Source: an uncultured Candidatus Saccharibacteria bacterium
GTDB taxonomy: Bacteria; Patescibacteriota; UBA1384; CAZZBO01
Length of the DNA: 64,000 nt
Assembly: GCA_964652345.1 (NCBI GenBank)
Contig: CAZZBO010000001.1
Span: 3,892-67,891, forward strand
Direction: 5' to 3'
Shown: positions 1,545-1,710 of the stretch, in pieces
Position numbering within the stretch: position 1 is the first letter of the stretch
How the letters are laid out: each line of letters opens with the position of its first letter
Notes under the pieces: model-generated
Database searches by the model: none
Told to the model about the DNA's origin: nothing
What the model saw: the letters and a program-made list of their open reading frames with translations, nothing else
Program-made: the position numbers and the translations under genes

Positions 1545-1710
1545 TTTATAGGGCGGGCGGAATTCCCCCCGAACCCCCCTTCCGCCCGCCGCACCTGTCC
1601 GCCTCTGGCGGAGAAGCGACCCTTTCGGATTGGACGATTTCAAGTTTTTCGTTCCGCTTTTAGCGGAACTCCGAGCTTTGCTCGGTTTGGCAGCAAATCC
1701 TTTTTTATCT
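1545..1710. repeat. GC-rich structured repeat element, copy 1, in inverted orientation relative to copy A at 5095..5300
   Basis: Hairpin GGCGGGCGGAA(1552-1562)/TTCCGCCCGCC(1580-1590) with a 17-nt C-rich loop. Further perfect hairpins follow: GTTCCGC-TTTTA-GCGGAAC and CCGAGC-TTTG-CTCGG, then a T-run at 1701-1708. The reverse complement is homologous to 5202..5244 plus the flanking TTTCGG..ATTTGGA. Confidence 0.5.

Follow-up and report, generated by a model that had tools for sequence, protein, structure and literature searches.

A Modular Hairpin with a Two-C-Tract Loop in the Arms of tRNA-Targeting Recombinase Elements of CPR Bacteria, and a Decayed Island Carrying Two Copies of It

The Locus and Its Two Hairpins

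The stretch analysed here, referred to as the window, comprises 64,000 nucleotides of an uncultured Candidatus Saccharibacteria bacterium (contig CAZZBO010000001.1 of assembly GCA_964652345.1) and harbours two hairpins in opposite orientations, which are the subject of this report. Both represent a modular stem-loop whose loop has two C-tracts. This module is part of the GC-rich arms at the junctions of integrative elements, a family of which is widespread in the Candidate Phyla Radiation (CPR)/Patescibacteria. Intact members of this family encode a predicted large serine recombinase (LSR), whereas the window holds a decayed, recombinase-less island at 1501-8551, next to a tRNA-Ser(TGA) gene. 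This mobile-island context of the hairpins is identified with high confidence. The features of the island are collected in Table 1; L-numbers designate loci fetched from other genomes or metagenome contigs, about 200 in all.

Table 1. Features of the island and of its boundaries in the window.
Feature	Coordinates	Strand	Remarks
Type A junction unit	1501..1712	+	Distal island arm; hairpin copy 1, small hairpins, T6
tRNA 3'-half copy (CAGTTCGAATTTTTTCGAAAGCACACCGCCA)	1501..1531	-	Distal, attR-like boundary
Hairpin copy 1	1552..1590	+	11-bp stem 1552-1562 / 1580-1590, 17-nt loop with two C-tracts
137-aa cargo gene	1872..2285	-	No known family; protein also on Logan contig L125
TdeIII-type type II restriction endonuclease, cargo	2661..3443	-	PF09520, E 2.8e-94
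N4/N6 DNA methyltransferase, cargo	3440..5035	-	PF01555, E 1.5e-12
Type B junction unit	5057..5302	-	tRNA-proximal arm of the restriction-modification cassette
Hairpin copy 2	5202..5244	-	13-bp stem 5202-5214 / 5232-5244, 17-nt loop; C-rich version on the minus strand
Inferred newer island module	5344..8302	-	HTH gene, transposase, split deaminase
Adenosine deaminase gene, split	6057-7016 and 5344-5901	-
rve-family transposase	6985-8037	-
XRE-type helix-turn-helix (HTH) gene	8096-8302	-
Second leader-module copy	8390..8483	-	Upstream of the HTH gene
LSR remnant, last ~10 codons (..IPYDFTKSDNWR; ..YDFTKSDNWR)	8523..8560	+	Overlaps the tRNA-Ser 3' end
tRNA-Ser(TGA)	8552..8641	-	3' end is the proximal, attL-like island boundary

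Copy 1 pairs GGCGGGCGGAA with TTCCGCCCGCC around the loop TTCCCCCCGAACCCCCC (1563-1579), and copy 2, inverted with respect to it, pairs GGGCGAGGCGGAA with TTCCGCCTCGCCC around a loop at 5215-5231. The original prediction, drawn from the letters of the window, had described these two GC stems, that of copy 1 with 11 bp, and their 17-nt loops, had taken them for homologues and had pointed to GC islands in an AT-rich genome. All of this is borne out: the window has a G+C content of 33%, both hairpin units stand out as G+C islands, and the two hairpins are members of one family, covariance model R1 scoring copy 1 at 58.4 bits (E 8e-15) and copy 2 at 75.3 bits (E 9e-20). The further perfect hairpins and the T-run reported after copy 1 exist as well (1598-1612, 1651-1669 and 1671-1685; T6 at 1701-1706). 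Of the ~80 nt of homology proposed at the same time, just 42 nt align between the two copies, at 90% identity (BLAST), the likeness of TTTCGG..ATTTGGA being marginal; the extra A:T pair on both arms of copy 2 is right as an alignment, but marks a difference between two subfamilies and not a single insertion event.

The 25-nt core GGAATTCCCCCCNNNCCCCCCTTCC occurs in the window at these two sites only, with up to three mismatches allowed, and was matched in none of 100 shuffles; the covariance model, run with filters off, detected no third copy in the 64 kb. Both strands of each hairpin fold equally well as DNA, with energies of -15.3 and -15.3 kcal/mol for the two strands of copy 1, and -16.6 and -17.3 kcal/mol for those of copy 2, corresponding to z-scores of -2.4 to -5.6 for both copies. 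When folded as RNA, the whole type B unit reaches a z-score of -4.6.

With regard to known RNA signals, canonical scans called no promoter-like site at 1500-1550 or 5300-5340, and no terminator-like site at 1500-1712 or 5057-5302. Intrinsic (Rho-independent) terminators consist of a GC stem with a U-run within 0-2 nt; the T-runs of the two units lie 15-25 nt off the main stem and, in type B, within a predicted loop, and this assignment was rejected. The scan of the window against Rfam at the gathering threshold returned two tRNAs and nothing else, no credible overlap with either hairpin unit appeared at E values up to 10, and the ARAGORN search for tmRNA or tRNA-like structures gave nothing at the units. 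A curated structured RNA family was thus rejected too, no covariance model matching at or near its gathering score, in line with the failure of the original prediction to match the element to tmRNA, RNase P, SRP or a riboswitch class.

The Hairpin Family in Other Genomes

Further copies in related CPR genomes, which the original prediction had proposed to count, are numerous. An exact-match scan of species representatives, one genome per species, recovered the core in at least 119 genome contigs, overwhelmingly from CPR bacteria, with Saccharibacteria, Parcubacteria groups, Microgenomates and Peregrinibacteria among the matches listed; about one in ten of the listed records bears a non-CPR label and may be mis-binned. 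The contigs often terminate at the hairpin core. In IMG/VR, the core motif is present in just 3 stretches and the recombinase in 6 loci, on which grounds a viral origin was rejected. Both ends of one IMG/VR contig of 4386 nt (L214) fall inside the inverted hairpin arms, and the contig encodes an N6_N4 methyltransferase; rather than a virus, it probably represents a cassette severed at the repeats during assembly.

The stems of the family differ widely in sequence. Among 96 distinct copies, in which the fixed loop was imposed by the search pattern, they include GGGCGCGGC/GCCGCGCCC, GGGCGAGGC/GCCTCGCCC, GGGCATGGC/GCCATGCCC, AAGAACACGGC/GCCGTGTTCTT, AAGGAAAAGC/GCTTTTCCTT and others. Over a 17-bp stem, 85% of the cells of this alignment are paired, compared with 73% after shuffling, and 213 double-sided changes were counted against 83.5 in shuffled alignments. 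The covariation score amounts to 0.317, compared with 0.118 for shuffled alignments, none of 500 reaching the observed value, and at most 0.194 for slid registers. The upholding of the stem by compensatory change, originally proposed from the two window copies, therefore holds family-wide. Mispairs of the G-T type (38) and of the A-C type (31) are about equally frequent.

The loop follows one theme, namely, two C-tracts separated by a short spacer, which is rich in A in almost every copy; perfect pyrimidine mirror repeats are frequent among these loops, e.g., TTCCTTCCCCC(C)AACCCCCTTCCTT. Subfamilies whose stems are unrelated, from many CPR phyla, all keep this theme. The stems vary freely around a conserved interior. 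The membership of the window hairpins in this family, its architecture, the covarying stem and the conserved pyrimidine-mirror loop are established by these comparisons and by those of the following two sections.

Several copies (L064, L068, L091, L099, L065 and L058) are chimeric, combining the 5' arm of one subtype with the 3' arm of another, which meet at the core; unless they are assembly artefacts, they suggest recombination at this point.

In other respects, the arrangement of the hairpin is flexible. Tandem pairs about 40 nt apart and in the same orientation occur in the arms of L057 (~720-860), L010, L077, L102, L090 and L098, the canonical loop coming first and a GGGCAAAAA variant second. 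In L009, L044, L076 and L047, the flanks (GCTCGGGC..GCCCTCGC) are fixed and non-palindromic and the loop between them occurs either way round, and an identical 41-nt inner hairpin, GGGCAAAAATTCCTTCCCCCCAACCCCCTTCCTTTTTGCCC, has both orientations relative to the recombinase gene (L134, L147 and L164 versus L157 and L192). Two copies within one element are always mutually inverse, so any flips are concerted.

Such features recall a selfish miniature palindromic insertion, similar to miniature inverted-repeat transposable elements (MITEs) or repetitive extragenic palindromic (REP) sequences, that would sit in the arms without any role for the element. The inner palindrome of ~40 nt is discrete and is found in GC-rich arms as well as in AT-rich flanks (L072, L193), both orientations occur, and a CTCG direct repeat surrounds the palindrome in several subfamilies, like a target duplication. 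This repeat is, however, absent from type A and from the AT-rich cases, and the stems, which would be the terminal repeats, vary around a conserved interior, the opposite of what holds for a MITE recognised by a transposase. Furthermore, the hairpin does not appear to be dispersed: two copies are present in 64 kb, and elsewhere it lies essentially always 200-600 nt from the LSR gene or at the far end of the cargo. The probability of such an insertion is, in our view, slight.

Architecture of Intact Elements

Twelve loci gave two hairpin hits, which are always inverted and 1.7-4.7 kb apart. Self-comparison places these hairpins within inverted repeats of 79-404 bp that are ~91-100% identical. 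The cargo between them is unrelated from one locus to another, and often consists of restriction-modification genes (CfrBI, HinP1I and HaeII endonucleases with C5 or N4/N6 methyltransferases, Vsr and an AAA_15 ATPase). One kind of cargo pairs a ResIII helicase with a methyltransferase; others encode a major facilitator superfamily (MFS) transporter, an ATP-binding cassette (ABC) transporter, an aminotransferase with a SIS-domain protein, DsbD with a flavoprotein reductase, or TrmB with a radical-SAM protein. Neither a transposase nor an HUH protein was detected among the 35 cargo proteins scanned from hairpin-bounded cassettes, and assignments to an insertion sequence (IS), a composite transposon, an IS200/605 element or an integron were rejected on this basis.

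The cassette is often adjoined by a unit of ~1.73 kb with its own inverted repeats of 124-137 bp. Its product of ~500 aa contains Resolvase, Recombinase and Zn_ribbon_recom domains, from which it is predicted to be an LSR. The LSR gene is convergent with a tRNA gene, the 3' ends of both overlapping. With the recombinase-flanking repeats named X/X' and the cargo-flanking repeats Y/Y', the order in intact members, read in the sense of the tRNA, is tRNA 3' end, X, LSR gene, X', Y, cargo, Y', flank. X/X' and Y/Y' are each inverted repeats, and the hairpin is located in Y and Y', near the cargo boundary. On the G-rich strand, the outer ends of Y and Y' read as a tRNA 3' half, with GTTCGA, ~20 nt, and CACCA at the boundary (GTTCGA...CACCA in L011, L078, L018, L028, L057 and L081). 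At the inner end, the homology of the arms halts sharply after T(5-7)-GGCGGC, where the cargo begins, and the hairpin is constantly near this end. Judging from the coordinates, the inner X'|Y junction would be the reverse complement of the predicted excised-circle junction.

As regards the repeats of the recombinase unit, those bracketing the LSR gene of L018 lie at 4994-5117 and 6597-6720. The right-hand repeat of X/X' comprises the last ~40 LSR codons and the last 5-6 nt of the tRNA, and an inverted copy of the 3' end of the LSR gene thus lies upstream of its own start. In L034 (~1700-2120), a block of ~190 nt that begins with the last nucleotides of tRNA-Ser is tandemly repeated directly downstream of the tRNA, which may be another form of integration-site duplication.

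A second hairpin is confined to one end of the cassette, where it always precedes the cargo genes and has the same sense as they do. This leader hairpin was found in the window at 5077-5130 and 8390-8445 (both on the minus strand) and in L028, L040, L042, L067, L075, L080, L081, L103 and L110. Its stem covaries (CTTTTCC/GGAAAAG, GTTGCC/GGCAAC, ATGTTG/CAACAT), and its loop is conserved, with TTGCCCCACCC(N)CCC..GCGC followed by TTAAGGA(A/G)CTCCCT. The C-rich loop resembles an anti-Shine-Dalgarno sequence, and an AAGGAG-like stretch comes after it; the structure could be a 5' leader or a promoter element. An invertible segment of the Hin/Gin type would show both orientations in a population; the assembled loci give no sign of inversion, as the leader end of their cargo faces the recombinase in every case.

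Loci Found through the Recombinase Alone

An alignment of ten recombinases, used as query, retrieved at least 594 relatives in metagenome contigs, and 80 loci were fetched by their protein alone (L128-L207). A convergent tRNA overlapping the end of the LSR gene is present in 47 of the 80 loci, most of the others being cut by the contig end. X/X' or some other inverted repeat was observed in 66 of them, the X/X' repeats measuring 70-168 bp with 88-100% identity, and about two dozen of the 80 have a second inverted repeat round a cargo of 0.7-5 kb.

In these loci, a hairpin was defined as a stem enclosing two C-tracts and sought within 900 nt upstream of the recombinase. Among the 62 loci with enough sequence, 31 possess it, always 198-602 nt away. 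The density is 0.52 per kb upstream of the LSR gene versus 0.031 per kb elsewhere, and the hits elsewhere mostly represent the partner hairpin on the distant side of the cargo. The stems differ from those of the core-containing copies (GGGCAAAAA/TTTTTGCCC, GTCGGC/GCCGA, GGAGGA/TCCTCC), and covariation is again apparent, with 87% of cells paired versus 63%, a score of 0.603 versus 0.193, and both sides changing in 16 of 17 pairs, in an alignment that was fitted to the model and thereby favours structure somewhat. G-U pairs are rare overall in this set. The C-loop of the proximal hairpin is on the LSR-sense strand in 17 loci and on the other strand in 15, the distal copy always being the inverse, and one large subfamily has the G-rich version on the cargo-sense strand at the leader end.

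One may ask whether the hairpin has any function. The arms could be fossils of repeated integration at tRNA genes, in which correction at the DNA level alone keeps the palindrome perfect: they hold recognisable remnants of the LSR C-terminus and of tRNA 3' ends, the identity of the inverted repeats falls to ~91-93% in some elements, and half of the LSR loci are without hairpin. The maintenance of the loop theme, with its two C-tracts and mirror symmetry, next to unrelated stems and in many CPR phyla would, however, be hard to obtain without a constraint on the loop. The constancy of this theme and of the place in the arm, the chimeras joined at the core, unless these are artefacts, and the contig ends at the core speak for more than a fossil; a hairpin without function appears very improbable.

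The Decayed Island of the Window

The arms of the window are of the same kinds as those that adjoin recombinase genes in L017, L096, L116, L008, L205 and L183. On the minus strand, tRNA-Arg and then tRNA-Ser(TGA) (8641-8552) come upstream of the island. The 8-mer TGGCGGTG occurs on the plus strand at 1501 and 8552 only in the 64 kb, and TTGGCGGTG is found at 1500-1508 and 8551-8559, so that the island starts at the tRNA 3' end and ends at a copy of it. This distal copy has a GTTCGAAT block like the T-loop of a tRNA. Beyond the type A unit, outside the island, lies an SdpI-family gene.

The LSR remnant at the proximal boundary aligns by blastx with the C-terminal end of the recombinase of L116 (75% over 12 aa, E 8e-4), and the DNA of its region matches the places where recombinase and tRNA genes meet in L057, L116 and L207. 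No LSR gene was detected elsewhere in the window by tblastn. Because this remnant of ~10 codons is all that is left of the gene, the window is a decayed relic and not an intact member of the LSR-element family.

With regard to the two arms, the type A unit is 92% identical over 208-214 nt to L022 (3230-3017) and L078 (2077-1870), the flanks being unrelated, and homology among the copies of this type starts exactly at TGGCGGTG (1501). The type B unit, read on the minus strand, starts with a tRNA 3'-end stub, GGTGGCACGCCA (5302-5291), continues at 5290-5267 with a sequence like the last codons of a recombinase in antisense, and then includes hairpin copy 2, a small hairpin (5141-5163), the leader hairpin (5091-5126) and GCTAAGGAACTCCC (5090-5077). 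It is 91% identical over 193 nt to L086 and 87% to L008, again with unrelated flanks. The CPR origin of the window accords with its composition and with this identity of 91-92% between its units and those from CPR genome bins. Its recombinase-like stretch gives a weak blastx match (NFVPVENWR versus DFTKSENWR, E 0.9), which is not significant alone. A recombinase pseudogene was rejected as an explanation of the whole arm: apart from the C-terminal ..DFTKSxNWR remnants, the blastx similarities are weak (E 0.5-0.9). In the window, a type A arm stands opposite a type B arm across the cargo, which accordingly is without long, near-identical inverted repeats, only the 42-nt hairpin being shared (90%).

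In four loci without recombinase (L073, L037, L050 and L062), the type B order follows directly after a real tRNA, the sequence being tRNA end, LSR-end remnant, hairpin, T-run with GGCGGC, and cargo. On account of this order, we infer that the island arose by two successive additions of a module at tRNA-Ser, the older being the module with the restriction-modification genes, pushed distally. A 59-nt direct repeat is common to the two parts, 8421-8479 being 98% identical to 5105-5163, 3.3 kb apart, and each copy stands at the tRNA-proximal edge of an inferred module. The segment 8303-8483 is 88% identical to L134 2532-2712, just inside the arm next to the recombinase gene.

Within the newer module, the two deaminase open reading frames (ORFs) correspond to positions 1-124 (6057-7016) and 191-323 (5344-5901) of the Pfam A_deaminase family; the upstream one overlaps the end of the transposase ORF. 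This split gene is either a pseudogene or the result of a frameshift. Between the 137-aa ORF and the endonuclease gene, two further G+C-rich islands (2402-2539 and 2605-2655) are present. Homologues were found neither among the ~200 loci nor in the rest of the window, Rfam gave no match, and both islands were rejected as arm copies or structured RNA, their fold being ordinary (z -0.85).

Independent short-read assemblies (Logan) of this strain, which is contained in samples SRR30024180-82, SRR15603312, SRR8476675 and SRR33558617, break at the edges of these units. All five contigs with the SdpI gene end at 1525-1529, contig L125, which carries the restriction-modification genes, covers only ~1631-5228 of the window, and contigs coming from the tRNA side end at 8553, 8530 or 8425. 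Such breaks fit repeated or variable sequence at these places. Look-ups of exact proteins encoded within the island and to either side of it yielded neither an empty site nor a bridging contig, the contigs stopping at the unit edges, an outcome that is suggestive without being decisive; the methyltransferase gave no record in such a look-up. The predicted empty site reads ...CACCGCCA|AGTTTAAATTATTTG, also written CCCTCACCGCCA|AGTTTAAATTATTTG.

Function of the Hairpin

Taken as a whole, the explanation that we consider probable is that the hairpin is an arm module of tRNA-targeting LSR elements, which acts on DNA and not as RNA. As to the mechanism, a DNA-level module working the same on either strand is put forward tentatively; it is favoured over a small RNA because of the 17:15 split in orientation, the similar numbers of G-T and A-C mispairs, and the lack of any terminator, promoter or Rfam match in the scans described above. 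The hairpin would act as a cruciform or as a single-strand hairpin, its purine/pyrimidine mirror-repeat loops being prone to non-B structures. It may mark or insulate the cargo boundary, and may provide a shared point for the swapping of arms and cargo between elements. By analogy with other systems, the inverted arms might guard the cargo from deletion through recombination of the repeats, yet permit its replacement by double crossover.

The original prediction had instead seen a transcribed, structured unit, which amounts to a small RNA gene standing by itself, its paralogue being located at a distance of 3.6 kb. The covarying stem and conserved loop, as well as the several hairpins and the T-run at 1598-1706, speak for such a gene. 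Nevertheless, the unit is always found within mobile-element arms, as inverted pairs round cargo, it is modular and shuffled between arm types with no fixed orientation, promoter-like sites are absent from the two intervals scanned, and the window copies are homologous over the 42-nt hairpin only. The context has already largely refuted a gene of this kind, which we regard as extremely unlikely. The structural observation is sound, and its interpretation as a small RNA is largely replaced by that of a mobile-element arm module. The prediction had allowed that an Rfam hit or an IS end would reclassify the element; there is no such hit, but the second clause essentially applies, the units being the arms of mobile elements.

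A different proposal is that the hairpin works as RNA inside transcripts of the cargo or the recombinase, as an insulator against read-through, a non-canonical terminator, a stem-loop protecting transcript ends, or a hairpin that binds a protein or sequesters the Shine-Dalgarno sequence; the inverted pair would then give the cargo mRNA complementary 5' and 3' ends. In agreement with this, the GC stems are very stable for a genome of 33% G+C, as is the type B unit as a whole, the T-runs are on the cargo side of the hairpin, 15-25 nt away, in both arms, an internal stem mismatch is conserved, and the leader hairpin with its C-rich loop and covarying stems stands nearby, always upstream of and in sense with the cargo. 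A strand-specific RNA is argued against because a large subfamily has the G-rich version on the cargo-sense strand at the leader end, G-U pairs are rare and the T-runs are distant from the stem. Moreover, the loop orientation relative to the recombinase and tRNA is nearly balanced, G-U is not in excess over A-C mispairs, nothing terminator-like was called and no Rfam family matches. A role in these transcripts therefore seems unlikely to us.

Several points weigh against a DNA-level arm module, and two of them would fit RNA, namely, the conserved mismatch at two stem positions (TC opposite TC) and the covariation of the adjoining small hairpins. To our knowledge, the elements encode no enzyme that acts on such a hairpin, and we know of no LSR that needs one. 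The hairpin lies 50-250 nt away from the tRNA-end mimic at which crossover would take place, and about half of the LSR loci and several Y arms do not have a two-C-tract hairpin, so that the family does not depend on it. In a DNA palindrome, template switching or gene conversion can produce compensatory changes without selection on structure, and the chimeras could be artefacts of metagenome assembly at a repeat. Lastly, with a mixed pair of type A and type B arms and a lost recombinase, nothing in the window can be active now.

A bolder version of the arm module would make the inverted hairpin pair the cis-acting site of an undescribed, strand-indifferent step in the mobility of CPR gene cassettes, which we think quite unlikely. 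This step might be a natural exchange of cassettes between elements with common arms. Alternatively, it might pass through a single-strand or cruciform intermediate, in which case either incoming strand would carry one C-loop hairpin. The G-rich and C-rich mirror loops could form a G-quadruplex, an i-motif or a triplex.

Significance

Little is understood of the ways in which CPR/Patescibacteria, whose genomes are tiny, acquire and exchange accessory genes, restriction-modification systems among them. The hairpin marks a very widespread family of small tRNA-targeting LSR elements of unusual layout, the motif being present in at least 119 genomes and the recombinase having at least 594 relatives. 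If the family is undescribed, it would help to locate genomic islands of CPR bacteria together with their cargo, and would provide natural pairs of recombinase and att site that target tRNAs as well as a conserved nucleic-acid structure with a testable role. If true, the cassette-mobility step and the nested layout, with the attachment region of the element repeated internally in inverted form, would represent a new mode of cargo capture by LSRs in organisms thought to depend on DNA uptake. As for the annotation of the window, 1501-8551 is a decayed island and not a small-RNA gene locus.

Comparison with Known Systems

Islands seeded at tRNA genes are of a known kind, as are cassette arrays made by LSRs. 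For a family of tRNA-targeting LSR elements in CPR bacteria, we found no description in the literature searched, nor for the combination of an LSR gene that ends in a tRNA, inverted repeats round both LSR and cargo, a hairpin in the arms, and a wide spread in CPR.

The attC sites of integrons resemble the hairpins in being cassette-boundary sites with a conserved fold and little conserved stem sequence. They are used by the tyrosine integrase IntI as one specific folded strand, and have one orientation in the array. In contrast, the hairpin pairs are all inverted, their orientation relative to neighbouring sequences is not fixed, and the enzyme is of the serine type, which led us to reject an attC site or cassette array. 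In elements of the IS200/IS605 type, both end hairpins are on the same strand and a Y1/HUH transposase or Rep is encoded. The window hairpins are on opposite strands and no HUH protein is among the 35 cargo proteins, and IS200/IS605 or other HUH ends were likewise rejected.

REP sequences, bacterial interspersed mosaic elements (BIMEs) and Correia repeats are, like the hairpin, short GC-rich intergenic palindromes with compensatory changes in their arms. They reach tens to thousands of copies per genome in many contexts, whereas the hairpin module occurs twice in 64 kb and is linked to a single family of elements.

In the inverted repeats of the yeast 2-micron plasmid that carry the FRT sites, and in engineered cassette exchange with phiC31 and inverted att sites, a recombinase gene and a second segment are also parted by long inverted repeats. 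Inverted flanks prevent loss by deletion in these systems and still allow inversion or double-crossover exchange. The likeness is an analogy of layout only.

SCC-type cassette chromosomes of Firmicutes use the ccr LSRs, target rlmH and are bounded by direct repeats. As in the CPR elements, LSRs set variable cargo at the 3' end of one conserved gene, and tandem cassettes have short integration-site repeats between them. The SCC target is, however, rlmH and not a tRNA, and neither long inverted arms nor a conserved stem-loop is known in these cassettes.

The tycheposons (Hackl et al., bioRxiv 10.1101/2020.12.28.424599) are cargo-carrying integrative elements at tRNA 3' ends, most of which use tyrosine recombinases. 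Newer elements push older ones distally, leaving partial tRNA copies and degenerate integrase fragments, and the cargo includes defence genes. In that paper, a search found the word "hairpin" absent and "inverted repeat" once. The two-module island that we infer in the window, bounded by repeats of the CACCGCCA type, resembles the accretion of tycheposons, but the elements described here differ from them by an LSR whose own 3' end overlaps the tRNA, by long inverted repeats round the LSR gene and round the cargo, and by the hairpin in their arms.

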